Assembly: GCF_003044035.1 (NCBI RefSeq)
Contig: NZ_NVQC01000008.1
Location: 30,001 to 62,000 of the forward strand
DNA from: Candidatus Methylomirabilis limnetica
GTDB taxonomy: Bacteria > Methylomirabilota > Methylomirabilia > Methylomirabilales > Methylomirabilaceae
Direction of reading: 5' to 3'
DNA length: 32,000 nt
The position numbers and the translations under genes are program-made. Of the stretch, positions 11,335-30,650 are shown one piece after another (the stretch's first letter is position 1; the number at the start of each line of letters is the position of its first letter). The notes beneath the pieces are model-generated. The model did no database searches. It was given only the letters and a program-made list of their open reading frames with translations, and had not been told where the DNA came from.

Positions 11335-11928
11335 ATGACGGTGGCTTGCATCACCTTGATCGTTTCGACCATTGCAGCACTGGCAGCACTCGGGACTGTA
11401 TCGGAGATCAGGAATCATCTTTGCTATGAGCACGACATCAACAGTGTTTGCTCGAAAGTCCAAATCAGCGAATCCGAAATGAGGGTATTTGCGTGGTATC
11501 CGGAGGCGAAGCCATTAAGCTCGTCACCTTCCACCCCTAATCCTTACCTGGACGCTTTGACTCCCAGCAGAATTGTGCACGATATTCCACCTTACGAAAA
11601 ACGCTCATACGCCAGCGGTTTCCCGAGCGGAAAACAACAGTGGCTATACTGGGAAGCGCGTCTTAAGTCTCATCTTCCTCCATTCGGCTCAATCAGGTTC
11701 GTGGTCCATTGGACGACTTACGATGCAAGTGGCAATCCTGTCGCAGGCGGTGTCTTTGAGGCCACGTGGGGTGCCGATGACCCGGTAGCCCTTATTATTG
11801 GCCCTGTCGACACAGTTCCAATTGGAGCTACCAGTCAATTTTTGCGGGGGCACTATGAGGTCGTTCTGAAGGTGTATGGCAATAAACTGGCAGAGTCAGA
11901 AGTTCACGGCGGATTCGATATTTACTGA
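11335..11928 (+). CDS. Hypothetical membrane-anchored protein (orphan)
   Basis: The start is placed at ATG 11335 (MTVACITLIVSTIAALAALG, an N-terminal TM helix). A Pro/Ser linker and a beta-rich C-terminal domain follow. No family was recognised. The region looks more AT-rich than its neighbours by eye. Confidence 0.5.
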   Translation: MTVACITLIVSTIAALAALGTVSEIRNHLCYEHDINSVCSKVQISESEMRVFAWYPEAKPLSSSPSTPNPYLDALTPSRIVHDIPPYEKRSYASGFPSGKQQWLYWEARLKSHLPPFGSIRFVVHWTTYDASGNPVAGGVFEATWGADDPVALIIGPVDTVPIGATSQFLRGHYEVVLKVYGNKLAESEVHGGFDIY

Positions 11929-12060: not shown

Positions 12061-12089
12061 TTGACATTCCATACTAGCAATCGTATAGT
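12061..12089 (+). promoter_or_regulatory. Near-consensus sigma70-type promoter (TTGACA-N17-TATAGT) upstream of the decahaem gene
   Basis: TTGACA at 12061-12066, a 17-nt spacer, and TATAGT at 12084-12089, about 65 nt upstream of ATG 12154. The same hexamers, spacing and following CC recur at 18534-18562. Confidence 0.5.
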
Positions 12090-12153
12090 CCCTCTACTGC
12101 TCGATTTCAGAGTCGCGTTTCCGTTTACGCTTGACACCTATAGGGGTTCAAAG

Positions 12154-13155
12154 ATGAAGAAGCGTGACACTGTGGCCGCTTTATTGCCCTTGCTATTTGT
12201 TGTTCTCCTTGTTGGATGGGCGTGCAGTCGATTTAGCCCGTCGCCCTCCGGAAAAGAAGCTCTCCCCGCGCAAGCCCCATCCGCCACGACCACCGTTGCC
12301 CCTCGACCTCAGTGGACCGGTCCACCGCCCGGCGCCAAGTATGTGGGGAGTGAGTCCTGCCTGACGTGCCATGAGGAGTCGAGCCAGCGCTTTCATAAGA
12401 CGATGATGGGGCGGATCATGTCCGTAAACCCGCGCACCCCCCAAGAGCAGCGGGTCTGTGAGTCGTGTCATGGCCCTGGGGGCCCTCACGTAGCTGCGGA
12501 GGGCGATGCCATTGAAACATTGATGACGTTCAAGAAGGGGGCAGAGCCGGTCGAGGCACAGAATGCCACGTGCGTGAACGGCTGCCATGAAAAGGGTGAG
12601 CACACTTCCTGGAAGGGGAGCACCCACGAGATGCGTGGCGTGGCCTGCGTGACCTGTCACAAGGTGATGGAGTCGGTGTCCGCCCGATACAACCTGGCGA
12701 AGCCGACCGCGATCGAGGTCTGCTCGCAGTGTCACCAGACCCGCCGGGCCCAGCTCCAGCGCAGTTCGCATATGCCGCTGCGCGAGGGGAAGATCAGTTG
12801 TAGCGACTGCCACAACGCGCATGGGACCGCCACCCAGGCGATGCTCAGGGAAGATTCGGTCAATGACAACTGTTACAAGTGCCATGCGGAGAAGCGGGGG
12901 CCGTTCCTCTGGGAACATGCGCCAGTCACAGAGAGCTGTACGAACTGCCACGAGCCGCACGGCTCCACAAATCCGAGACTCCTGAAGGTCAGGGTTCCCA
13001 GGCTCTGTCAGCAGTGTCATGTTGAGACCCGACACCCAACGAGCCCATACAATCCGACGACCGGAGCAAGGCAGGTCACCAACAGGGGCTGCAACAACTG
13101 CCACCAGAAGATCCATGGGTCAAACCATCCATCAGGATTCGCCTTCACGAACTGA
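12154..13155 (+). CDS. Periplasmic decahaem c-type cytochrome, DmsE/MtrA/PioA/MtoA family
   Basis: 333 aa from ATG 12154 (aGGGG upstream) with a signal or lipoprotein-like N-terminus. It has nine CxxCH motifs plus one CxxxCH (CVNGCH) in the third position. Family-typical blocks are present: KYVGSESCLTCHE, CESCHGPGGPHV, PFLWEHAPVTESCTNCHEPHGS and CNNCHQKIHGSNHPSG. Confidence 0.9.
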   Translation: MKKRDTVAALLPLLFVVLLVGWACSRFSPSPSGKEALPAQAPSATTTVAPRPQWTGPPPGAKYVGSESCLTCHEESSQRFHKTMMGRIMSVNPRTPQEQRVCESCHGPGGPHVAAEGDAIETLMTFKKGAEPVEAQNATCVNGCHEKGEHTSWKGSTHEMRGVACVTCHKVMESVSARYNLAKPTAIEVCSQCHQTRRAQLQRSSHMPLREGKISCSDCHNAHGTATQAMLREDSVNDNCYKCHAEKRGPFLWEHAPVTESCTNCHEPHGSTNPRLLKVRVPRLCQQCHVETRHPTSPYNPTTGARQVTNRGCNNCHQKIHGSNHPSGFAFTN

Positions 13156-13188
13156 GGTAGCGAACTGCATCAATCGGGGAGGTGGGCC

Positions 13189-15603
13189 ATGGGAGCGTTA
13201 ATCAGGATGAGATGGGTCAGCAAAGCACTACTGCCCGCCATAGCCCTGCTGCTGACGGTCGTCGCATCGGGTTACGCAGAACAGGCCCCGCCGGAGGAGG
13301 CTCTCCCGTCTTGGGCCAAATGGCTAAACGGTCGACTGCCATTCAACTTTGAGCTGACCGAGTTGGATATCGAGGGCGGTTATCGCGACATCGATGGCAG
13401 CCGGAGTTCGGCCAAGTTTCAGGAGTACCGCGTCCTTGAAGAGAGTCCCTTTATGGACCACCTTCGACTCTCCATGGAGACCAAAGATAAAAAGCACTAC
13501 ATCGACTTTACTACGCTAGACAGCTTCAAGCAGGACCAAAGCTACCTGTTTAGAGCAGGGCAGTACGGTGGCTATGAACTGGAGGTCTTCTGGGATCAGA
13601 TCCCCCATCTGCTGAGCACCACAGGACGAACACTCTTTACCACCACGCATGAGGATAGTACGGCGAGTCTAACCCTGCCGCCTGGTGTCGCATCGACGGT
13701 CCAGGCCGCTACCCCAGCCACAAGGGGCTCCGTGATGGCCGGCTTTCTGGTCAATGCCGCACCGACGGATCTCAGTTTCCTGACCACCAAAGCGGGATTC
13801 AAGATGAAGTACAACCTGACAGATTCACTGGATGTCGGTGTCCGCTATACCTTCACGCAGAAGGATGGGACGATTCCCTTTGGTACCGGTTTCGGTGGCC
13901 CGGGGAGCCTTATCGAGCTTCCGGCCCCCCTCTTTAACCGCACCCACCAGGTTGAGGCCAAGACCCAATATGCTCGGCCGGGTTGGAACGTTAGTCTTGG
14001 CGGCGCCGCATCGATCTTCGACCAGGGCATCGACAACATCACGTTCGACAACCCGCTCTCGGCAACGGACAGCCCGACCGTTGCCTCTCGCGGCCGGACC
14101 ACCATGGACCCGAACAACCAGGCGTATAACCTGTTTCTCTCTGGCGGCGTCTCCCTGCCGCTTCAGACCAGAGTCACGGGTAAGGTCTCCTACGGGTGGC
14201 GGCTCCAGACTCAGGATTTCGTCCCGCATACCATCAACCCCGCTTTGGCAGCCAATCCCCTATTGGCGCTCCCAAAACGCGATCTGGATGGAGATGTCCA
14301 AACAACCCTTGTGACGATCAACGGGACGAGTCGCCCGATTACCACTGTCCCGCTGACGCTATCCGGTGGCTACCGCTTTTATGACTTCAATAACCGATCA
14401 TCTGAGATCGAGTTCACTGCGCATACGGTCCGGGATACGTCGCTCACGGCCGAGACGCGGGCCAACGCGCCCTTCTCCTACACGAAGCAAAATGGTCGCC
14501 TGGACGCGGGTTATTCCCTCCTCAAGGACCTTCATCTCAATATGGGTTACGAGTGGGAGCGGTGGGACCGCGATCCGAAATACCGCGAGGTGCAGACCAG
14601 TGATGAGCACTTCTTAAAAACCAGCCTCGACTTTACGCCGATAGACTGGCTGCTCCTTAGAGGCGCCTATCGCCGGAGTTGGCGCAACATCGACAAGTAC
14701 GTGCCCCAGGCCCATCATGCGCATATCGTCACCGACATCGAGGGGGAGACAGATCCAGAGGTCCTGGAGCTCCAGGGTCAATCGACTCTGCTTCGGAAGT
14801 TTGACGAAGCCGACCGGACACGGGACAGGGTCGAGATTTTAGCGTCGATCACCCCGATCGAGACACTCAACTTTACGGCGACCTATGGCCTTATGCGGGA
14901 TGATTTTGACAAGTCCCCGCTCGGGCTGCAGGAATCGCGGGGATGGAGCCTGGGTGGCGATTTGGCCTATAGCCCTCGCCCGTGGCTTTCGTTCTTCGTG
15001 AACTACATGAGGGAGGAGTTTAAGTATGATCAGCTCTCTCGCTCCAGGCCGGTCGTCGGCAACGTATCTACGGCGACCGCTCTGGCGCCGGGGTGTGCGT
15101 TTACCTCCCCTTCCGCCGCAACCAGTAACGCGGTCTGTGACTTTACCGATTTTAATTGGAGGAGCATTAACAGAGATAGGGTAGACACCTATGGGGTAGG
15201 CGCCGACGTCAGCCTGATTCCCAACCGTCTCAACCTGCGGTTGAGCTACTCCTTTTCTGACGCCGACACGATCATCGATTCGTCCAACCCTGTCGCTCCG
15301 GAGCTCCACCCACCCACGACTGGGGCCACCCAGCGGGCTACGGCGACCGCCGTCCGGTATCCCCTGGCGAACACGAACCTGCACACCCTGATCGCCGCGC
15401 TTCGCTATAATATGACTAAGAACTGGAGCCTTAATGGCGAGTATCGATTTGAGCAGTTTCGGGAGACCGATTGGGCGACCGACGCGATTGGGACGTCTGG
15501 CCTAACGACCTTACCCCCGACGGCCGATACATATTTAGGCGCTCGGTTCCTCCAGAATTACAACGCCCATATTGCTGGTTTTACGCTTCGCTATAAGTTC
15601 TGA
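13189..15603 (+). CDS. Outer-membrane beta-barrel, MtrB/PioB (decahaem-associated porin) family
   Basis: 804-aa ORF starting 33 nt after the decahaem gene (GGGGAGGTG SD). It has a signal peptide (ALLPAIALLLTVVASGYA-EQ), alternating-polarity beta-strand character throughout, and a C-terminal FTLRYKF-stop typical of OMPs. Its size matches PioB/MtoB, and the gene order is MtrA then MtrB. Confidence 0.8.
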   Translation: MGALIRMRWVSKALLPAIALLLTVVASGYAEQAPPEEALPSWAKWLNGRLPFNFELTELDIEGGYRDIDGSRSSAKFQEYRVLEESPFMDHLRLSMETKDKKHYIDFTTLDSFKQDQSYLFRAGQYGGYELEVFWDQIPHLLSTTGRTLFTTTHEDSTASLTLPPGVASTVQAATPATRGSVMAGFLVNAAPTDLSFLTTKAGFKMKYNLTDSLDVGVRYTFTQKDGTIPFGTGFGGPGSLIELPAPLFNRTHQVEAKTQYARPGWNVSLGGAASIFDQGIDNITFDNPLSATDSPTVASRGRTTMDPNNQAYNLFLSGGVSLPLQTRVTGKVSYGWRLQTQDFVPHTINPALAANPLLALPKRDLDGDVQTTLVTINGTSRPITTVPLTLSGGYRFYDFNNRSSEIEFTAHTVRDTSLTAETRANAPFSYTKQNGRLDAGYSLLKDLHLNMGYEWERWDRDPKYREVQTSDEHFLKTSLDFTPIDWLLLRGAYRRSWRNIDKYVPQAHHAHIVTDIEGETDPEVLELQGQSTLLRKFDEADRTRDRVEILASITPIETLNFTATYGLMRDDFDKSPLGLQESRGWSLGGDLAYSPRPWLSFFVNYMREEFKYDQLSRSRPVVGNVSTATALAPGCAFTSPSAATSNAVCDFTDFNWRSINRDRVDTYGVGADVSLIPNRLNLRLSYSFSDADTIIDSSNPVAPELHPPTTGATQRATATAVRYPLANTNLHTLIAALRYNMTKNWSLNGEYRFEQFRETDWATDAIGTSGLTTLPPTADTYLGARFLQNYNAHIAGFTLRYKF

Positions 15604-15632
15604 CCTCTATATCGCGCGCAAAAGGAGTAGTG

Positions 15633-15671
15633 AAGCCAGCCTGTCGGGCGTCGTCTGACGAGCTGGCTTTT
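15633..15671 (+). terminator. Possible weak hairpin/attenuator between the porin and Rieske genes
   Basis: AAGCCAGC at 15633-15640 pairs with GCTGGCTT at 15662-15669 and is followed by TT. The loop is large (21 nt) and the T-tract is short, so this is not a strong intrinsic terminator. Confidence 0.25.
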
Positions 15672-15694
15672 GACGTTCAAGTCTGAAGGAGGGA

Positions 15695-16150
15695 ATGGTT
15701 GTGCCACAGCAAGATGAACAGGTCGATTATGGGCGGCGAACGGTGAATTGGCTTCTCGGGAGTTCCATCGGCGTGCTCTTCGTATCCATCCTTTACCCGG
15801 TTGTAAAATACCTGATTCCCCCAAAACTTGCCGAGCCGACTACGTTTAGCGTGACCCTTCCCTGGAAGCTTGCGGAGTTGAAGGCGAACTCGGGGCGGAT
15901 ATTTCGATTCAGGAGTCGACCTGGCCTCTTGGTGAAGACGTCGGCTGGTGAGTTAAAGGCCTTCTCAGCGGTCTGTAGCCACCTGGAATGCACGGTGCAA
16001 TACCGGGAAGAGCGGCAGGACATCTGGTGCGCCTGCCACAATGGCGTGTTCGACCTGAATGGAAAAAATATCAGCGGCCCGCCGCCTCGGCCCCTGGAGT
16101 CTTTGAAGTTGAACGTTCGTGGCGATCAGATCGTCGTTATGAAAGGGTAG
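15695..16150 (+). CDS. Rieske [2Fe-2S] subunit of a cytochrome bc/b6f-type complex
   Basis: 151 aa with an N-terminal TM helix. Rieske boxes are CSHLEC (box I) and CACHNGVF (box II). The start is either ATG 15695 or, with better spacing to GGAGG, GTG 15701. Confidence 0.9.
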
Positions 16151-16154
16151 CCAT

Positions 16155-17243
16155 GTGATGGGGGATCGGATCACGGCTTGGCTTGAAGAGCGAATCGACC
16201 TTTCGGCGCTCAAGCACCTCATCCAGAAAAAGGTCATCCCTGTCCATCGCCATACCGTCTGGTACTATGTCGGCGGGATGACGCTCTTTCTCTTCGGGAT
16301 CCAAGTGGCGACCGGGATCCTGCTGACCCTCTACTACCGGCCCAGCTCCGAGGAGGCATACGAGAGCGTTCAATTTATCGTGACCGAAGTCCAATTTGGC
16401 TGGCTCGTTCGGTCGATCCATAGCTGGTCAGCCAATCTGATGGTGTTGACAATGATGATCCACATGTTCAGCGTCTACCTAACTCAAGCCTACCGAAAAC
16501 CACGAGAGCTGACATGGGTGACCGGAATATTGCTTTTCGGCATTGTGCTTTTCTTCGGGTTCAGCGGGTATCTGCTACCATGGAATGTCCTCTCGTACTT
16601 CGCCACTAAAGTCGGGACCGAGGTCACTGGGCAGCTTCCGATTGTGGGTCATTTTCTGGTGCGGCTCCTCAGGGCTGGTGACGAGGTCTCGGGTGCGACG
16701 CTTTCCCGCTTTTTCGGCATCCACATTGCAATCCTGCCGGCGCTCACCACGCTGATACTCGCCCTCCACCTCCTCTTGGTCCAGAAGCAGGGGATGAGTG
16801 TTCCTGCAACCGTAGAGCGTGCCCAAGCGGGACAGCCGCTCAGGACCATGCCGTTTGTCCCCAATTTTCTGCTGCGAGACCTCTTCGGCTGGTTCGCCGC
16901 CCTTGGGCTCTTGGCCGCCCTGGCCGCTATGTACCCATGGGAGCTGGGACAAAAGGCCGATCCTTTCGCCCCCGCACCCGCTGGGATCCGACCGGAATGG
17001 TACTTTGTCTTCATGTTTCAGAGTTTGAAGTATATCCCGGCCAAGGTCGGTCCATTTGACGGTGAGGTCTTGGGGGTCCTGGGCTATAGTCTGGGCGGGC
17101 TGTTCCTTTTACTGGTCCCATTTCTGGACAAAAGGACAGCCCGGGGCGAGCCAAGCCCGCTCTTCCGATGGATCGGGATCGGTATCATCGCGTACATCGT
17201 GATACTCACCGCGCTTGGATATTTCGCGCCTGCCTTCAAATGA
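16155..17243 (+). CDS. Cytochrome b (fused b6-like N-terminal part + subunit IV-like C-terminal part)
   Basis: 362 aa starting 5 nt after the Rieske stop. The bis-His haem ligand pairs fall in helices B and D ([19 protein letters not shown] and [22 protein letters not shown]), and a PEWYF motif is present in the C-terminal part. Confidence 0.92.
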
Positions 17244-17250
17244 GGAAGCC

Positions 17251-18519
17251 GTGAGGATCGCGCTGCGCATCGCGTGCTTCGGCCTTATCCTGATCGCGGC
17301 CGGCCTGATCCGCGTCCCCTTCGCGGAGGCGCAGGATGCCTGTGTTGACTGCCATAAGGCATCAAAAGAGGAGCGCCTCAGCCGTCCGGCCTTGAAGATT
17401 AAAGACGATTACCACCTGGCGCGTGGACTGGGCTGCCAGAACTGCCACGGCGGTGACCAGGCCGCAGTCGGCAACAAGGCGCAGAGCCACAGTTCGGCCA
17501 AAGGGTTCCTGGGCAAACCGAATCGGCGCGCGATCCCTGAATCCTGTGGGAAGTGCCACAGCGATCCAGTCTATATGCGGAAGTTTAATCCTTCCATTCG
17601 GACAGACCAGGTAAAGGAATACTATACGAGTCTCCATGGCAAAAAGCTTCGCGAAGGAGATCTGAAGGTCGCCGTCTGTACCAGTTGCCATGACGTCCAT
17701 GCCATCCGTGCCAGCAAGGACCAGGCGGCATGGACATATCCTGTCAAGGTCGCTGAGACTTGCGCTCGCTGCCACGGTGACGCTGAATACATGAAAGGCT
17801 ACAAGATCCCCACCGATCAGCTTGAGAAGTACAAGCAGAGTATTCATTACGAGATGTTGACCAAGAAGGGGGAGCTCGCCTCTCCGACGTGCAGCGGCTG
17901 CCACGGTAGTCACGGCGCCGCCCCTCCCGGCATCGATTCCGTGGCGAATGTCTGCAGCCACTGTCATGCAGCGACGGCCGAGCTCTTCGACAGGAGCGCG
18001 CATAAGGCGGCATTCGCCGAGCTGGGGATGCCGGCGTGCGTGACATGTCATAGTAATCACGATGTCGTGAAACCGTCGGACGCGATGCTGACTGGTGGAG
18101 AAGATACCGCTTGTGCCACTTGCCATGAAGCGAACTCTGCGCCCCTAAAGAAGGCTGCTGAGTTGCGAACTATGATCGAGGGCCTTTCGAGTCAAATCGA
18201 TCAGGCGACGGCAATCCTCACCAAGGCTGAGCACGCAGGAATGGAGATCGGCCATCCTCGATTCGAGCTCATTGCGGCGAAAGACTCCTTGATCAAGGCC
18301 AGAGCAGAAACCCATTTGCTCAAGGTGGAAAAGATCAAGGCTATCACCGACCCAGGGTTCATCGTCGCTCAGAAGAGTCTCACGAGCGGCCAAGACCTCC
18401 TGACCGAGCTGCAGTTCCGCCGCAAGGGGCTGGCGGTCTCCATGCTGGTCATTGGCGCGGTTCTGATCGGCCTCTTCTTAAAGATCCGGGAAGTCGATAG
18501 ACGGAGAGGACCTCGCTGA
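17251..18519 (+). CDS. Membrane-anchored nonahaem c-type cytochrome (occupies the cytochrome c1/f position of the bc operon)
   Basis: The start is placed at GTG 17251 (GAGGAAG SD), 8 nt after the cytochrome b stop. It has a signal-like N-terminus, nine CxxCH motifs, a C-terminal helical region and a single TM anchor (LAVSMLVIGAVLIGLFLKI). Confidence 0.85.
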   Translation: MRIALRIACFGLILIAAGLIRVPFAEAQDACVDCHKASKEERLSRPALKIKDDYHLARGLGCQNCHGGDQAAVGNKAQSHSSAKGFLGKPNRRAIPESCGKCHSDPVYMRKFNPSIRTDQVKEYYTSLHGKKLREGDLKVAVCTSCHDVHAIRASKDQAAWTYPVKVAETCARCHGDAEYMKGYKIPTDQLEKYKQSIHYEMLTKKGELASPTCSGCHGSHGAAPPGIDSVANVCSHCHAATAELFDRSAHKAAFAELGMPACVTCHSNHDVVKPSDAMLTGGEDTACATCHEANSAPLKKAAELRTMIEGLSSQIDQATAILTKAEHAGMEIGHPRFELIAAKDSLIKARAETHLLKVEKIKAITDPGFIVAQKSLTSGQDLLTELQFRRKGLAVSMLVIGAVLIGLFLKIREVDRRRGPR

Positions 18520-18533
18520 CAATACCGCCGGCA

Positions 18534-18562
18534 TTGACATGAATAGGTAGAGCGGCTATAGT
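18534..18562 (+). promoter_or_regulatory. Second near-consensus sigma70-type promoter (TTGACA-N17-TATAGT) inside the cytochrome locus
   Basis: TTGACA at 18534-18539, a 17-nt spacer, and TATAGT at 18557-18562. It lies 15 nt after the nonahaem gene stop and about 180 nt upstream of ATG 18744. Confidence 0.5.
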
Positions 18563-18666
18563 CCGCATGACAGCCCGATGGCATGAGCTAGGAGCGTATG
18601 GGACCGTGCCCCGAAGATGCGAGCGAAAGCGGAGTAGCGAGTAATCACCTCTGCCCGCTTTCGATC

Positions 18667-18710
18667 CAATAGACGCAATAGACGCGATGACGCAATAAAC
18701 GCAAGAGACA
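18667..18710 (+). repeat. Degenerate tandem 9-mer array (CAATAGACG x2, CGATGACG, CAATAAACG, CAAGAGACA) in the leader of the trihaem cytochrome gene
   Basis: Read directly from the sequence. The array ends about 33 nt upstream of ATG 18744. It is preceded by a 9-bp stem hairpin (CGAAAGCGG at 18624-18632 and CCGCTTTCG at 18655-18663). Confidence 0.8.
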
Positions 18711-18743
18711 TTTTCTAAGAACTGCCCGTAGAAAGGAAGAAGC

Positions 18744-19157
18744 ATGAGATCAATGATCGGAGGGAGCGCGAGGCTTGCTCTCGCGTGCCTCCTGCTTGTG
18801 AGCTTCACGCCATCGCGTAGTGTCGCCCAGCCAAAACTGAAGATTCCACCCCCCTTCGCCTTCGAGCAGAAGACCAAGGATGAGGCGGGGAACATGAGCT
18901 TTGGGAAGGTAACGTTCGATCACAACGTGCATATTGAAAAAGGCCAAAAGTGCCTGAGTTGCCACGGCAAGGGTAAACCCTTCAAAAATAAGAATGGAAC
19001 CTCTCCGGACATCACCATGAAGGCCTTCAATGAAGGAAAGGCGTGTGGTACATGCCACAACGGGAAGGTTGCATTCTCCACAAAGGAGATAGGCAATTGC
19101 CTGAAGTGCCATAAGGTCAGTACGGTTCCGCAGCCGAAGAGCACCGAGACGCAGTAA
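18744..19157 (+). CDS. Periplasmic trihaem cytochrome c, c7/c3 (PpcA-like) family
   Basis: 137 aa with an AAGGAAG SD and a signal peptide (ARLALACLLLVSFTPSRSVAQ). It has three CxxCH motifs (CLSCH, CGTCH, CLKCH) and the VTFDHNVH motif typical of c7/c3 domains. Confidence 0.85.
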   Translation: MRSMIGGSARLALACLLLVSFTPSRSVAQPKLKIPPPFAFEQKTKDEAGNMSFGKVTFDHNVHIEKGQKCLSCHGKGKPFKNKNGTSPDITMKAFNEGKACGTCHNGKVAFSTKEIGNCLKCHKVSTVPQPKSTETQ

Positions 19158-19259
19158 CTGGATTGTGGCAGGTGGCCGACTTGAGAGTGCGCCTCTTCAC
19201 GGTCCCTGCTATCGCGCGCCCTGTTTGGGAACGTGGGTAGCGATACCATTTCACGCTTG

Positions 19260-21443
19260 ATGATGAGGAGCGCATGCTACGGAAAGGCGGCCGGGGGCCT
19301 TTTCCTTGTTTGGCTTTTTCTGCCCATAGCTCCGAATGTCTTCGCGGTCGTCTCGGAGTTGCCTGCCACTTCTCAGGAGTGCTTGGCCTGCCACAACGAT
19401 CCCGACTTGAAGAAGGAGATCGGGGGAGGGCGATACGCTTCGCTGCTCGTAGAGCCGGCCGACCTGATTCAATCCGCGCACAAAGAGCTTGCCTGCGCCG
19501 AGTGCCATGGTGGCATCCCAGAAGGGTCTCACGCCGAAACGCCCCAGCCAGTACGTTGCAGCGCCTGCCATCTCAAACCCCATGAGAATGTTCCGGATAG
19601 CGCTCATGCCAATCTGGGGGGTATAGGCCCCAGCGCCAATTGCATCGCCTGTCATGGTAGTCACCGAATCCAGAAGATAGCCGCCGATGGCAACGTCAGC
19701 CTCTGCGCTTCGTGCCATGGCCGCCAGGCGAAACATATGGCCGCCGGCATTCATGCCGGTAGCCGCGGGGAGAAAACCAGGCATCTGCCAACCTGCGCCA
19801 CGTGCCACAACACGGCCCACGCCGTCAAATCTCACCGCGATCCTGTGTCGCCCACCCATCGCTCGCAGATTCACGAAACCTGTGCCCGCTGCCATGCCGA
19901 TCCGAAGGTGATCGCCGAAGAACAGATCACCAGGCCGCGGGCCGTTGCGCTCTTCGTGCAAAGCATCCACGGCCAAGCCATCCTACAGAAAGGCAATCTC
20001 ACTGCCGCAACCTGCACCGATTGCCATGGCGCTCACGAGATCCGACGAGCTGCCGATCCCGCCTCTGGCGTCTTCAAGCAGAACGTCGCCGTCACCTGCA
20101 AGCAGTGCCACGACGACGTAGCCAGTCAGTTTCAGGACAGCGTGCACGGGAGGGCCGTCTCACACGGGGTTTTCGCGGCGCCGACATGCACTGATTGCCA
20201 CGGGGAGCATGGGATCACTGCCACCCGCGCCCCGGGATCGCGAGTGGCGCCGCTGACCGTCTCCAAGACCTGCGCTGCCTGCCACGAGGCGGTACGGGTG
20301 GTCGAGGAGTTTGGCCTCGCGCCGCGGCGAGCCGGGACGTTCTTTGAGAGCTTTCACGGCCTGGCTGCGAGAGGTGGGTCGCCCGTGGTGGCCAACTGTG
20401 CAAGCTGCCATGGGACCCACAATATTCAGCCCTCCTCCGATCCTCGCTCCACCGTCAACCCGATGAACCTCTCGCGAACCTGTGGGCAGTGCCACCGAGG
20501 CGCCGGCATACAATTGGCCAGTGCCAGAATTCACGTGGCACCAGGGTTCGGCGAGCACCCATGGGTAACCCTGGTCCGACAGATCTACCTTGTGATTATC
20601 TTTGTCACCATTGGCGGGATGAGCCTGCACAACGGGCTTGACTTCCTGGTACATCTGCGAGAGCGTTGGCGAACAGAGGGGCAGCAGGAAGACGAACCCC
20701 GCGTGCCTCCCGAGGTGGCGCGCCGTCTCTTTGAGCGATTGACACTCAATGAGCGGATTCAGCACGTTACGCTGTTTGCGACCTTCACGATCCTGGTGAT
20801 TACCGGTTTTGCCCTGAAGTTTCCTGATGCGTGGTGGGCACGGCCGCTGGTCTGGATCGAAAGCGGATATGCCGTCCGAGCCTGGCTACATCGAATCGCC
20901 GGCGTGCTCATGACGCTGGCGGCAGGGTATCATCTGGCGTATCTCTTCGGCACGCAGCGTGGCCGGGCTCAGTTCCGATTGATGCAACCCTGCCGACGGG
21001 ATGTAGGCGAGGCATGGGAAATGGTGACCTTTAATCTGGGTCTGCGGCCACACCGGCCCCGTTTCCACCGCTTTACGTACGTAGAGAAGCTGGAGTACTG
21101 GGCGGTCATGTGGGGAACTGTCGTTATGGCCGGCACCGGGTTTATCATGTGTCTACAAACTATTGTGCTGAAGCGCTGGCCCCTTTTGGTTATTGACCTG
21201 GCAAGCGTCGTCCATTATTACGAGGCATGGCTTGCAACGCTTGCTGTCCTGGTCTGGCACTTCTACAGCGTCATCTTCCGGCCTGATATCTACCCGATGA
21301 GCCAGGTCTGGCTGACTGGGAAGATTACGGGAGAACAAATGGCCAAGGATCACGCTGCCGAATTGGAGGAGACGCTTGCGGCAGAAACCGTGCTAAGCTC
21401 ATTGCCGGGAGATAAGAAGGCGGAACCGCGGGTAAGTATCTGA
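19260..21443 (+). CDS. Fusion protein: 13-haem c-type cytochrome domain + C-terminal membrane b-type cytochrome domain (FdnI/HydC-like; CbcL-like architecture)
   Basis: The ORF opens at GTG 19233, and ATG-ATG at 19260/19263 is the likelier start. After the N-terminal TM/signal segment, 13 CxxCH motifs occur in the first roughly 430 aa. The last roughly 280 aa carry 4-5 predicted TM helices with conserved His residues (IQHVTLF, WLHRIAG, VHYYEAW, VWHFYSV). Confidence 0.85.
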   Translation: MMRSACYGKAAGGLFLVWLFLPIAPNVFAVVSELPATSQECLACHNDPDLKKEIGGGRYASLLVEPADLIQSAHKELACAECHGGIPEGSHAETPQPVRCSACHLKPHENVPDSAHANLGGIGPSANCIACHGSHRIQKIAADGNVSLCASCHGRQAKHMAAGIHAGSRGEKTRHLPTCATCHNTAHAVKSHRDPVSPTHRSQIHETCARCHADPKVIAEEQITRPRAVALFVQSIHGQAILQKGNLTAATCTDCHGAHEIRRAADPASGVFKQNVAVTCKQCHDDVASQFQDSVHGRAVSHGVFAAPTCTDCHGEHGITATRAPGSRVAPLTVSKTCAACHEAVRVVEEFGLAPRRAGTFFESFHGLAARGGSPVVANCASCHGTHNIQPSSDPRSTVNPMNLSRTCGQCHRGAGIQLASARIHVAPGFGEHPWVTLVRQIYLVIIFVTIGGMSLHNGLDFLVHLRERWRTEGQQEDEPRVPPEVARRLFERLTLNERIQHVTLFATFTILVITGFALKFPDAWWARPLVWIESGYAVRAWLHRIAGVLMTLAAGYHLAYLFGTQRGRAQFRLMQPCRRDVGEAWEMVTFNLGLRPHRPRFHRFTYVEKLEYWAVMWGTVVMAGTGFIMCLQTIVLKRWPLLVIDLASVVHYYEAWLATLAVLVWHFYSVIFRPDIYPMSQVWLTGKITGEQMAKDHAAELEETLAAETVLSSLPGDKKAEPRVSI

Positions 21444-21521
21444 GTAAAAGACTCGAATCAGCAAAAGAGGAGTATTGTTGTAAAGCACACCTCGTGAGGT
21501 GCTGTCCAACCCTGGTGCACG

Positions 21522-21609
21522 AAAACCCCCTCAATCCCTCTTTGCGAAAGGGGGAGGTAAGGAAACGTATACGTATCCCCCTTTTTTGAAAGGGGGGTCA
21601 GGGGGGTTT
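21522..21609. repeat. Composite GC-rich palindromic repeats (two units of the PPFxKGGxGGF family) downstream of the cytochrome locus
   Basis: Inner palindromes are ccctctttgcgaaaggggg (21536-21554) and tcccccttttttgaaagggggg (21576-21597). They are enclosed by aaaaccccc (21522-21530) and ggggggttt (21601-21609). One frame reads PPFLKGGSGGF. The structure may also act as a transcription stop. Confidence 0.75.
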
Positions 21610-21674
21610 GTCTGAAGCTGACGGCTGATCGTTGATTGCTGAATACTATTTTCGAAGGAAACTCAGAGGAGATA

Positions 21675-22271
21675 ATGGAAGAACAACGGTCCACCGGCAA
21701 GATACGTCTTGTCATAATGCTGGGTAGCGCTTTGGCCGTAGGCTTTCTTCTTGGCTACCTGTCCTCAGCCTTCGTTCCTCTCGTCAAGCCAACGCAATCG
21801 CCTGCCGCTTCGGCGCCGACTGCTCCTGTCCCCCGTCTCTCGCTCTCCGAGATTGATTCGGCCTTGAAGGCTGCCCACGCCTCACTCGATGCCGGTGACC
21901 ACCAAGCGGCCTGGGAGAAATATCACCAGATCCTGATGTCCGATCGGAGCAATGCCGAGGCGCTGACTCACCTCGGAATCATTCTGACACAGAGCAACCA
22001 GCCGGATGAGGCCATAAAGCTGTATGACCGGGCGCTGAGCGTGGACCCCAAGTACGCCCATGCGCTATTCGATAAAGGGCAGGCCTTGAAAGATAAGGGG
22101 GATGCGAAGGGGGCCACGGAAGCGTTCCAGCGGTTTCTCACCATGGTGCCGCAGGACTCAGACGATGCCAAGCGGGTCAAAGGATGGATAGCGGAGTTGG
22201 CCAGCTCCGATAAGCCTCAGAAGGAAAAACACCGGGACAAGCAAACGACTGGTGGAGCGGCGGAGGAGTGA
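21675..22271 (+). CDS. TPR-repeat protein with N-terminal membrane anchor
   Basis: The start is placed at ATG 21675 (GAGGAG upstream). It has a TM helix (LVIMLGSALAVGFLLGYLSSAF) followed by TPR-like repeats (AWEKYHQIL..., EAIKLYDRALSVDPKYAHALFDKGQAL..., GATEAFQRFL). Confidence 0.75.
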   Translation: MEEQRSTGKIRLVIMLGSALAVGFLLGYLSSAFVPLVKPTQSPAASAPTAPVPRLSLSEIDSALKAAHASLDAGDHQAAWEKYHQILMSDRSNAEALTHLGIILTQSNQPDEAIKLYDRALSVDPKYAHALFDKGQALKDKGDAKGATEAFQRFLTMVPQDSDDAKRVKGWIAELASSDKPQKEKHRDKQTTGGAAEE

Positions 22272-28700: not shown

Positions 28701-28922
28701 TTGCTTTGGTAGATGTAGATGTTAATTGTTGACGCCTCCTTAGGGTAAGTGTGGGATATTGCAGGCAAAAGTCGTCGTTGCGAAGTGGAGCCGTCTTGCG
28801 AGGTAGGCTACCGGCCTTTGTCGGTCTCTAACGCGGCTCGTGTAATAGATGGCGCGGACGCTCCGCGAGTCAATCTGCTCATCACGCTCGACGTTAATCA
28901 CGCAACACGTTATGATACGCCT

Positions 28923-29201
28923 GTGATCAAAACGTTCCAGTGCGCCGACACAGAAGCTCTCTCGAAAGGCCGGCGGGTCAAGCGGTTCGTGCGCATCGAG
29001 TCGGTCGCGCGCCGCAAGCTGCGACAGCTACAGATCGCAGACCGGCTTGAAGACCTCCGTGTGCCACCGGGCAACCGGCTGGAAGCGCTCAAGGGCGACC
29101 GCGCCAGGCAACACAGTATCCGCATGAATGATCAAATTCGGGCGTGCTTCCTCTGGACGGCTGCGGGCGCCGAGGACGTTGAGATCGTGGACTATCATTG
29201 A
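28923..29201 (+). CDS. higB: Type II toxin, HigB (RelE/ParE superfamily, killer protein)
   Basis: The conserved region starts at GTG 28923 (VIKTFQCADTEAL...PPGNRLEALKGDRARQHSIRMNDQIRACF...VEIVDYH). It is followed 12 nt later by higA, in toxin-first order. The ORF-track start at 28749 adds an unsupported 58-aa extension. Confidence 0.85.
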   Translation: MIKTFQCADTEALSKGRRVKRFVRIESVARRKLRQLQIADRLEDLRVPPGNRLEALKGDRARQHSIRMNDQIRACFLWTAAGAEDVEIVDYH

Positions 29202-29213
29202 TGGAGGGAGACC

Positions 29214-29531
29214 ATGCGTAAGCTCAAGCCCGTGACGCCCGGCGAGTTGCTGCGCGAAGAGTTTCTGATCCCGATGGGCCTCACGCAATATCGCCTCGCC
29301 AAGGAAATCGGTGTGCCCGCCCAGCGGATCGGTGACATCGTGGCAGGCAAGCGTGCCATCACGGCGGGCACCGACCTGCGCCTGTGCCGGTTCTTCGGTC
29401 TTTCCAACGGTTATTGGCTGCGGGCGCAGGCGGCCTATGACACCGAGGTGGCGGAAGAAGCCCTAGCCAAGACCCTGGCGAAGATCAGACCGTGGGTGGG
29501 AGTGCCCACTCATGCTGGTTCTATGGCCTAA
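29214..29531 (+). CDS. higA: Type II antitoxin, HigA (XRE HTH)
   Basis: The sequence is typical of HigA: PVTPGELLREEFLIPMGLTQYRLAKEIGVPAQRIGDIVAGKRAITAGTDLRLCRFFG. Confidence 0.9.
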   Translation: MRKLKPVTPGELLREEFLIPMGLTQYRLAKEIGVPAQRIGDIVAGKRAITAGTDLRLCRFFGLSNGYWLRAQAAYDTEVAEEALAKTLAKIRPWVGVPTHAGSMA

Positions 29532-30230: not shown

Positions 30231-30650
30231 TTAAGCCTGAGAGATGGGCTTATGAGCCCTAGGCGAGTAGGGTGGAGTGTACAGTTTAAGGCCTGGAATG
30301 TGCTTGAAGTGTGTATCGAGGGTATACACCCGGTACCCATGTTCTATGGCAAGGGCACCGATGATAAGGTCTGACAGGGGAAGCGTGACGCCTTTCCGCC
30401 GGAGCGAAGCCGAAAACTCCCCGGCTCGCTTCCAGGTTGAGAAGCTGGTTTCCAGGTAGCTGAGACCGGAGAGATTCGAGAGGATCGTATCGGCATCCTC
30501 AGAGGATCGGCACCCCTGGAGTAGTTCGGCCAGCACCACGCCCACGAGAACTACCTGTTCAGTGCGGATCAGGGTCCGCAGTGCCGCCCGAGCCGGCTCG
30601 TTGCCCCCTTTGAAGTATTCGATCCAGAGAGATGTATCAGCGATGACCAC
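30231..30650 (-). CDS. vapC: Type II toxin VapC (PIN-domain ribonuclease)
   Basis: 139 aa with PIN acidic residues in context (VIADTSLWIEY..., LAELLQG, SDLIIGALAIEHG, YTLDTHF). It overlaps vapB by 14 nt. Confidence 0.9.
   Translation of the reverse strand: MVIADTSLWIEYFKGGNEPARAALRTLIRTEQVVLVGVVLAELLQGCRSSEDADTILSNLSGLSYLETSFSTWKRAGEFSASLRRKGVTLPLSDLIIGALAIEHGYRVYTLDTHFKHIPGLKLYTPPYSPRAHKPISQA

Follow-up and report, generated by a model that had tools for sequence, protein, structure and literature searches.

A predicted porin-cytochrome conduit coupled to a Rieske/cytochrome b complex in Candidatus Methylomirabilis limnetica

The window analysed here is a 32-kb stretch of DNA from Candidatus Methylomirabilis limnetica (locus tags CLG94_00755 to about CLG94_00785), as identified by an exact-sequence match; M. 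oxyfera had been considered as the source and was rejected. The window contains seven genes, g1 to g7, whose products very probably form a conduit linking the quinone pool to the cell surface. A first operon, read from a promoter-like element at 12061, would supply an MtrC-less porin-decahaem conduit of the MtrA/MtrB type together with a Rieske/cytochrome b/nonahaem complex. A second operon, read from an element at 18534, would supply a soluble c7-type trihaem shuttle and a fusion of a 13-haem domain to an FdnI-like dihaem cytochrome b, which would act as a second quinone-reactive module. The haem path that we infer would lead, in either direction, between the barrel-embedded decahaem, the trihaem and the nonahaem or 13-haem domain, and it would end, on the inner side, either at the Rieske/cytochrome b complex (Qo site) or at the FdnI-like module (quinone site). 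The cluster appears to be of a kind that is known from genomes and biochemically uncharacterised, a porin-cytochrome system coupled to Rieske/cytochrome b, and to be new in this host. The original prediction, made from the letters of this DNA, had read the locus as a complete wire from the outer membrane to the quinones, and that reading is well supported by the comparative evidence.

The seven genes lie on the + strand at 12154-21443 and are separated by gaps of 33, 91, 7, 7, 224 and 105 bp, in agreement with the seven same-strand, closely spaced genes of the original prediction. Recounting the haem-binding motifs gave the predicted total of 35, made up of 34 CXXCH and one CX3CH (10 in g1, 9 in g5, 3 in g6 and 13 in g7). 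None of the other open reading frames (ORFs) of the window has two or more CXXCH motifs, and the window therefore holds no gene of the MtrC/OmcA or NapC/CymA type, as had also been claimed. A Pfam search for PF22113 returned a sole match in the window, which was sub-threshold and lay inside g1. The component families that had been assigned in the original prediction all held up in profile and fold comparisons. In the public record the products carry names such as 'DmsE family decaheme c-type cytochrome', 'MtrB/PioB family decaheme-associated outer membrane protein' and 'cytochrome bc complex cytochrome b subunit'.

The outer part of the predicted wire is encoded by g1 and g2. The product of g1 (12154..13155, +; CLG94_00755, PTL37094.1) is a periplasmic decahaem cytochrome of the DmsE/MtrA/MtoA family, 333 aa long. 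Its true start is the ATG at 12154; position 12061 is only a mechanical ORF start and coincides with the -35 box of the promoter-like element. The protein scores 266.9 bits with the DmsE-family model TIGR03508 (cutoff 192.2), matching profile positions 1-258 of 258, and it aligns over its full length with the solved MtrA structure 6R2Q_A (E 2e-69). Nine of its haem sites are CXXCH and one is CX3CH (CVNGCH), and they are colinear with those of the solved MtrA. The CVNGCH sequence forms the haem-3 site, is aligned with CMSCH of 6R2Q_A, and is kept in the Methylomirabilis clade. At the N-terminus of g1 (12154-12340) a Cys is followed by a linker of about 40 residues rich in Pro, Ser and Ala, and all MtrA homologues of the Methylomirabilis clade keep this Cys immediately after the hydrophobic core of the signal peptide (LVGWAC|SR). 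The conserved Cys and the linker suggest that MtrA of this clade is lipid-anchored, unlike the soluble MtrA of Shewanella, although the lipobox is non-canonical.

The barrel gene g2 (13189..15603, +; CLG94_00760) begins 33 bp 3' of g1, and the pair is retained in nearly all of 50 related loci. Its 804-aa product scores 321.8 bits with TIGR03509 (cutoff 240.05) and 394.6 bits with PF11854 (cutoff 23), and carries a signal peptide and a C-terminal Phe. An AlphaFold2 model computed with 50 homologues as input (predicted local distance difference test score, pLDDT, 84; predicted template-modelling score 0.77) has 26 strands of at least nine residues, as in an MtrB/PioB-family outer-membrane barrel. 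When the model was submitted to Foldseek, the best match was MtrB (6R2Q_B, E 2.4e-39, template-modelling (TM) score 0.89), which exceeded the runner-up (E 3.7e-10) by 29 orders of magnitude. The two assignments on which the original prediction hinged thus survived testing, g1 with an above-cutoff match to TIGR03508, and g2 with above-cutoff matches to TIGR03509 and PF11854 and with its 26-strand model. There are only two Cys residues in g2, 18 residues apart in the C-terminal third (GCAFTSPSAATSNAVC), and no N-terminal CXXC, a pattern that appears to resemble those of PioB and MtoB. Wee et al. (2014) are said to have found the N-terminal CXXC of MtrB to be specific to metal-reducing Gammaproteobacteria.

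The next three genes encode the subunits of a complex that resembles bc1 and b6f. A Rieske [2Fe-2S] subunit with an RR-containing N-terminal membrane anchor is encoded by g3 (15695..16150, +; PF00355, 40.5 bits). Its cluster-binding boxes, CSHLEC and CACHNG, are conserved in 15 homologues, and its closest solved relatives are Rieske proteins of the b6f, Chlorobium and anammox types. The product of g4 (16158..17243, +) is a long cytochrome b in which a b6-like part is fused to a subunit IV-like part (PF00033, 186 bits; PF00032, 37 bits), and its best matches in the PDB are cytochromes b6. In the subfamily alignment the haem-b ligands H88, H102, H189 and H204 are invariant and have b6-like spacing, and the motif PEW[Y/F] is found at 279-282. 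The protein has no cysteine at all; in place of CxGG, Y[F/V]GG stands throughout the subfamily, so that the cysteine that would bind haem ci is missing. Seven bp after g4 comes g5 (17251..18519, +), which encodes a nonahaem cytochrome c with nine CXXCH motifs. The position of g5 is that of the gene for the monohaem cytochrome c1/f of bc1/b6f complexes, and the topology of its product is likewise c1/f-like, with a cleavable signal peptide and a C-terminal anchor (transmembrane-like segments 7-25 and 394-412). We presume from its position and topology that g5 is the third subunit of the Rieske/cytochrome b complex, where it would replace cytochrome c1/f. Sequence searches of the PDB gave no relatives of g5 or g7.

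The remaining two genes would provide a periplasmic carrier and a second membrane module. The protein encoded by g6 (18744..19157, +) is a periplasmic c7-type trihaem cytochrome of the GSU1996-domain type with three CXXCH motifs (TIGR04257, 63.4 bits, cutoff 40; PF14522, 59 bits), and its best solved relative is 3OV0, which contains GSU1996 domains (E 2.5e-40). With only five His for three haems, the all-bis-His ligation of PpcA is not possible and one haem probably has a distal ligand other than His. One haem of the GSU1996 domains is His-Met ligated, and the same would probably apply to one haem of g6. The product of g7 (19263..21443, +) consists of a 13-haem periplasmic domain and a five-helix, FdnI-like dihaem cytochrome b domain. 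None of the 13 CXXCH motifs varies among 24 homologues, and the membrane helices also contain invariant His residues. The protein scores 42.5 bits with PF01292 (cutoff 30.1), and in the AlphaFold2 model the membrane domain (pLDDT about 80) has 1KQF_C, the FdnI of Escherichia coli, as its top Foldseek match (probability 1.0, TM score 0.80). FdnI is the dihaem, menaquinone-reactive cytochrome b of formate dehydrogenase-N. The earlier description of g7 as 'CbcL-like' is borne out for architecture and fold, that is, for a multihaem domain fused to an FdnI-like dihaem b; no model named CbcL was among the NCBIfam matches for the cluster. The proposal of two inner-membrane quinone modules is likewise supported by the haem ligands and PEWY motif of g4 and the FdnI-like model of the g7 membrane domain.

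Two promoter-like elements with identical hexamers, TTGACA-17-TATAGT (11 of 12 consensus positions), precede g1 (12061..12089, +) and g6 (18534..18562, +). The hexamers of the first are invariant in 6/6 Methylomirabilis-type genomes, in which the upstream DNA is divergent. The second is conserved in six of seven related genomes, and the DNA around it diverges. No terminator-like site is found between the genes from g1 to g5 on the + strand. A long and stable hairpin lies 3' of g7 (21522..21609, +; -57.2 kcal/mol, z -3.55), none of 200 shuffled sequences being as stable, and it probably ends the second transcription unit. The paired promoters and the hairpin suggest two units, g1-g5 and g6-g7, which could be regulated alike. 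The 5' region of g6 (18563-18702) contains a 9-nt repeat in three copies (AATAGACGC, 18663-18702), and a block of about 100 nt 5' of g6 is common to three related loci (L061, L062 and L012) and absent from three others (L004, L064 and L008). This region could be a putative binding region for a regulator; it matched nothing in Rfam, and its folding is not significant (z -1.0). Over the whole window, Rfam at gathering thresholds and a tRNA scan found nothing.

The complete cluster occurs in the same genomic neighbourhood in M. lanthanidiphila. It is also found in the Methylomirabilota metagenome-assembled genome (MAG) GCA_003104975, in MAG REEB33 and in several metagenome contigs, and there are orthologues in MAGs named M. 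oxyfera or M. oxygeniifera. Chance co-localisation of the cluster genes was rejected, given the conserved synteny and the conserved promoters. GCA_003104975 (L008:5416-8814) has an additional, divergent mtrAB pair directly upstream of the orthologous one (MtrA 51% and MtrB 30% identical). A contig labelled 'Patescibacteria group bacterium' (L011, DATMXF010000174.1) carries a Methylomirabilis-type g0-mtrA-mtrB arrangement with 62-87% amino acid identity, g0 being the gene upstream of g1 in the window, and further cluster proteins are attributed to the same bin; L011 is probably a mis-binned Methylomirabilis contig.

The relatives have one gene that the window lacks. Between the orthologues of g7 and of the tetratricopeptide repeat (TPR) gene that follows it, M. 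lanthanidiphila (L004:18219-20414), L013 and L063/L064 encode a 731-aa membrane cytochrome with 16 CXXCH motifs and an NrfH/NapC-like N-terminus, and in many further lineages, too, the cluster comes with a homologue of this gene. No remnant of it was found in the window, where 21444-21674 is a 230-bp spacer that contains only the long hairpin. The predicted absence of a NapC/CymA-type gene is therefore correct for the M. limnetica window, but a multihaem gene of the NapC/NrfH type belongs to the cluster in close relatives.

Two scans followed the cluster beyond the genus. In the barrel-anchored scan, which covered neighbours within 10 kb of mtrAB, the nonahaem-Rieske-cytochrome b trio was found near mtrAB, with cytochromes b 61-71% identical, in Rokuibacteriota, other Methylomirabilota, Acidiferrales (Acidobacteriota) and delta-proteobacterial MAGs, in differing gene orders. 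In a divergent lineage (L111) the decahaem passes the DmsE model and adjoins an 878-aa protein that belongs to no Pfam family, the remaining cluster being alike. The cytochrome b-anchored scan counted 12 long loci with at least 8 kb on each side. Cytochrome b of this subfamily is nearly always accompanied by the Rieske protein and the nonahaem; the nonahaem was present in 12/12 loci, a g7-like fusion in 11/12, a decahaem within 10 kb in 8/12 and the 16-haem NrfH-like gene in 7/12. The recurrence of this core across phyla with decahaems and haem-b fusions supports a single quinone-to-surface system, and the claim of one functional system is further backed by the genus-wide synteny and by the two promoters with identical hexamers.

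Some of these counts bear on a different explanation, in which the Rieske/cytochrome b/nonahaem complex, the trihaem and the 13-haem/b fusion serve nitrite, nitric oxide (NO) or O2 respiration in the periplasm and MtrAB is only a loose neighbour. The cytochrome b was always found with the nonahaem and only sometimes with a decahaem within 10 kb, and its subfamily is very large (7998 of 8000 scored candidates at E <= 1e-60). Multihaem Rieske/cytochrome b complexes have, moreover, been proposed to function in respiration in anammox bacteria, where their hexa- and octahaem subunits are tied to nitrogen-oxide chemistry (PMC12954380). However, in the Methylomirabilis clade mtrAB and the Rieske/cytochrome b/nonahaem genes stand behind one conserved promoter with short gaps, the combination of decahaem-barrel pair and bc core is found again, with varied gene order, in at least three further lineages at the phylum level, and the cluster encodes no nitrogen-oxide reductase. 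We consider this explanation improbable.

The best-scoring model for g1, that of the DmsE family, raises a further alternative, namely a DmsEF-type conduit in which MtrAB feeds an extracellular or outer-membrane terminal reductase, for example a molybdoenzyme acting on dimethyl sulfoxide (DMSO), iodate, selenite or arsenate, and does not itself react with metals or minerals. In a Rokuibacteriota MAG (L006:13031-18816) and in L009:1208-8583, mtrB or mtrAB lies beside an Alternative Complex III-like or Psr-like cluster of small multihaem, molybdopterin-like, 4Fe-4S and NrfD-type proteins and a cytochrome c. By its gene content this neighbouring cluster appears to be another quinol:cytochrome c-type module beside the conduit, and its molybdopterin-like component can be cited in favour of a DmsEF-type role. 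The TIGR03508 subfamily model, however, covers MtrA, MtoA and PioA as well, and no molybdoenzyme or catalytic subunit is present in or near the cluster, either in this window or in the other loci of the genus Methylomirabilis. We regard a DmsEF-type role as extremely unlikely.

Like the MtoAB(-MtoD-CymA/ImoA) system of Sideroxydans lithotrophicus and the PioAB(C) system of Rhodopseudomonas palustris, the cluster has an MtrC-less decahaem with a large barrel (TIGR03508/TIGR03509). The periplasmic carrier in those systems is the monohaem MtoD or the high-potential iron-sulfur protein PioC, whereas here it would be a c7 trihaem. Their partner in the inner membrane is a NapC/NirT tetrahaem or a photosynthetic chain, in contrast to the predicted co-transcribed Rieske/cytochrome b/nonahaem complex and the FdnI-like fusion found here. 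With MtrCAB-CymA of Shewanella (6R2Q) the cluster shares a decahaem that aligns with MtrA in full length and a barrel whose model superposes on MtrB. Unlike the Shewanella system it lacks MtrC, OmcA and CymA, its barrel has no N-terminal CXXC and is about 100 residues longer, and haem 3 is bound by CX3CH.

A precedent for the arrangement as a whole is the RBG-1 cluster of Castelle et al. (2013), which comprises MtrA, MtrB, mono- and multihaem cytochromes and PetAB cytochrome b/Rieske; this cluster of RBG-1 (later Zixibacteria) lacks extracellular cytochromes, and Fe(II) oxidation was inferred for it (PMC3903129). Compared by description, both clusters combine homologues of MtrA and MtrB, several periplasmic or inner-membrane multihaem cytochromes and cytochrome b/Rieske. 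They differ in that RBG-1 belongs to another phylum and has two monohaem cytochromes that are lacking here, and both are known from genes alone. The extHIJKLMNOPQS cluster of Geobacter likewise brings together a porin, multihaem cytochromes, the Rieske protein ExtO and the cytochrome b ExtP (PMC5877670). The G. sulfurreducens cluster and ours thus share an outer-membrane porin, multihaem cytochromes, a Rieske protein and cytochrome b in one conserved cluster, but ExtI, the porin there, does not resemble MtrB, ExtP is short and of the b6 type and has ExtQ as a separate protein, and the ext cluster includes a rhodanese and a selenoprotein. On the ExtP model g4 scored 218 bits, under the cutoff of 290, and neither g3 nor g5 matched the NCBIfam Ext models. 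The claim that the layout is unlike known ones thus stands for the characterised mtrCAB-cymA, pioABC, mtoABD-cymA and Geobacter porin-cytochrome (pcc) systems; it fails in that the RBG-1 cluster and Geobacter ext are precedents.

The inner-membrane modules also have separate counterparts. CbcL of Geobacter (GSU0274), compared by architecture and fold, similarly has a multihaem c domain fused to a HydC/FdnI-type dihaem b, with nine haems rather than the 13 of g7. The membrane fold of g7 is like that of E. coli FdnI (1KQF_C), but FdnI partners formate dehydrogenase and not a haem domain. In the anammox complexes Kuste4569-4574 and Kustd1480-1485, as in our cluster, a b6-like Rieske/cytochrome b is combined with a multihaem protein, there a hexa- or octahaem, that replaces cytochrome f/c1 (PMC12954380), and their Rieske proteins are among the closest solved relatives of g3. 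In contrast to them, the cytochrome b here is fused and has no cysteine for haem ci, and there is no NAD(P) oxidoreductase or subunit resembling hydroxylamine oxidoreductase. Dibrova et al. (2017) assigned DAMO_0768, a cytochrome b of M. oxyfera, to subfamily G and described genes for long cytochromes b of clade G' in 'large conserved operons ... of an unknown function' (PMC5600118). Orthology of DAMO_0768 or clade G' with g4 could not be confirmed; CBE67833 was not among the listed members of the cytochrome b cluster, which did include the orthologue from the M. oxyfera MAG. We found no discussion of the cluster in NC10 bacteria in the full-text literature searched, and the article that compares genomes of the genus (PMC6094997) makes no mention of Rieske, multihaem or porin.

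The direction of electron flow is the least secure step of our proposal, and the idea of combined uphill and downhill branches in the original prediction is likewise conjectural. We tentatively favour uptake, by a slight preference over export. Extracellular Fe(II), reduced humics, minerals or partner cells would then be the sources, as for PioAB and MtoAB, and the electrons would go to the periplasmic reduction of nitrite, NO or O2. They would, besides, reach the quinone pool by way of the FdnI-like module, which would then work with low-potential donors in the natural, proton-motive-force-generating direction of FdnI. Alternatively, quinone entry would take place through a reversed Rieske/cytochrome b complex driven by the proton motive force.

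Several observations lead us to this preference. There is no MtrC-type gene in the window, so that an extracellular cytochrome for contact with minerals is missing, and the characterised MtrC-less pairs are those of Fe(II) oxidisers. The barrel is PioB-sized and has no N-terminal CXXC of the kind seen in MtrB of Shewanella and of metal reducers. A pattern scan of the barrel family found loci of Afifella and Xanthobacteraceae and none of Shewanella. The host has high-potential periplasmic acceptors, and FdnI by nature takes up electrons on the periplasmic side and passes them to a quinone site close to the cytoplasm. Fe(II) oxidisers provide known cases of linkage to a complex III-type enzyme, an example being the pet operon of A. 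ferrooxidans (PMC10654088). Characterised metal reducers are not known to employ a Rieske/cytochrome b complex in extracellular electron transfer (EET). Finally, Castelle et al. (2013) read the analogous RBG-1 cluster in the same way (PMC3903129).

Other observations weigh against uptake, and they give export through the same apparatus a probability that is only somewhat lower. In that case electrons from methane would pass from the menaquinol pool to acceptors outside the cell, for example Mn(III/IV), chelated Fe(III), humics, electrodes or partner cells. One route would use the Rieske/cytochrome b/nonahaem complex in an energy-conserving Q cycle with higher-potential acceptors, the other the FdnI-like fusion in membrane-potential-assisted quinol oxidation with low-potential acceptors, and both would deliver electrons to the c7 shuttle and on to MtrAB. 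Since about two electrons per methane are surplus to O2 generation, export would spare nitrite.

The components themselves speak for such a role. In Geobacter and Shewanella, c7 trihaems, CbcL-type fusions and NrfH/NapC modules make up the export toolkit; the TIGR04257 match of g6 and the multihaem/b561 fusion g7 correspond to Geobacter-type export components, and an NrfH/NapC- or CymA-like module, the 16-haem gene, is present in the clusters of relatives. A metal reducer, Geobacter, has a porin-cytochrome cluster with ExtO and ExtP (PMC5877670), and MtoA/MtrB of lake Methylococcales has been interpreted as an EET electron sink (PMC7840105). The Rieske motif points the same way. A Ser/Tyr pair in this motif raises the potential and is kept in the anammox proteins (PMC12954380), but in the g3 family the Ser is missing throughout, and in M. 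limnetica the Tyr is missing too, Phe standing in its place. The missing pair points to a chain of low potential and of the menaquinol type, and such a chain would fit export as well. MtrAB-type conduits have, in addition, been reported to be bidirectional (PMC8258643). The link between conduit and complex III-type module is itself incomplete, as a cytochrome b of this subfamily was found in just 6 of 17 well-flanked MtrB loci. Together with the 8 of 12 cytochrome b loci that have a decahaem, this indicates a linkage that appears ancient and frequent, yet not obligatory.

Two genes adjoining the cluster may be connected with it. Upstream of the first promoter, g0 (11335..11928, +) encodes a 197-aa membrane-anchored protein that has no haem motif and matched no Pfam or NCBIfam family. 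It is conserved in several Methylomirabilis-type genomes (58-76% identity) and also stands upstream of mtrA in L004, L011, L062 and L064, although not in all relatives, and its membership is doubtful. Downstream, g8 (21675..22271, +) encodes a membrane-anchored TPR protein that matches TPR families, with a weak match to TPR_CcmH_CycH, and in every Methylomirabilis-type locus it is found after the cluster. Homologues of g8 are located directly 3' of mtrB in a Verrucomicrobiia MAG (L039:4817-5341) and a Deferrimicrobiaceae MAG (L046:1771-2139). The g8 protein may be an accessory or assembly factor for the conduit or its cytochromes, its membership in the cluster being uncertain. The locus is flanked by housekeeping genes, gatCAB and uvrD upstream and genes for a phosphatidyltransferase and an ATP-binding cassette (ABC) system downstream. 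Farther downstream are a HigB-like toxin with a helix-turn-helix (HTH) antitoxin and an opposite-strand PIN-domain protein (28749-29531 and 30231-30650), toxin-antitoxin modules with no relation to the conduit.

Methylomirabilis is regarded as a methane and nitrite specialist with intracellular oxygen production, and M. lanthanidiphila and M. oxyfera exist as enrichment cultures. A conduit from the quinones to the surface would add metals, humics, minerals and partner cells to its redox partners. If active in uptake, it could allow Methylomirabilis to draw electrons from Fe(II), reduced humics or even, directly, partner cells such as Methanoperedens, and these electrons would drive nitrite reduction and NO dismutation. 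If it is active in the other direction, oxides of Mn or Fe would receive the electrons from methane, and bacteria would thereby have a route to methane oxidation linked to metals. The recurrence of the core across phyla points to an uncharacterised class of multihaem Rieske/cytochrome b complexes for extracellular electron exchange. It is conceivable, if still doubtful, that NC10 methanotrophs have a genus-wide dedicated apparatus for electron exchange with the outside that is hard-wired to Rieske/cytochrome b, and that the core, the conduit and the FdnI-like fusion form a distinct EET 'complex III' supermodule; if so, this supermodule would be found widely among uncultured phyla of soils and sediments (for example Rokuibacteriota, Acidobacteriota and Desulfobacterota-like lineages). 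Such a conduit would alter the way in which Methylomirabilis is modelled in lakes and sediments, and with it the coupling of the methane, nitrogen and iron/manganese cycles by this organism.

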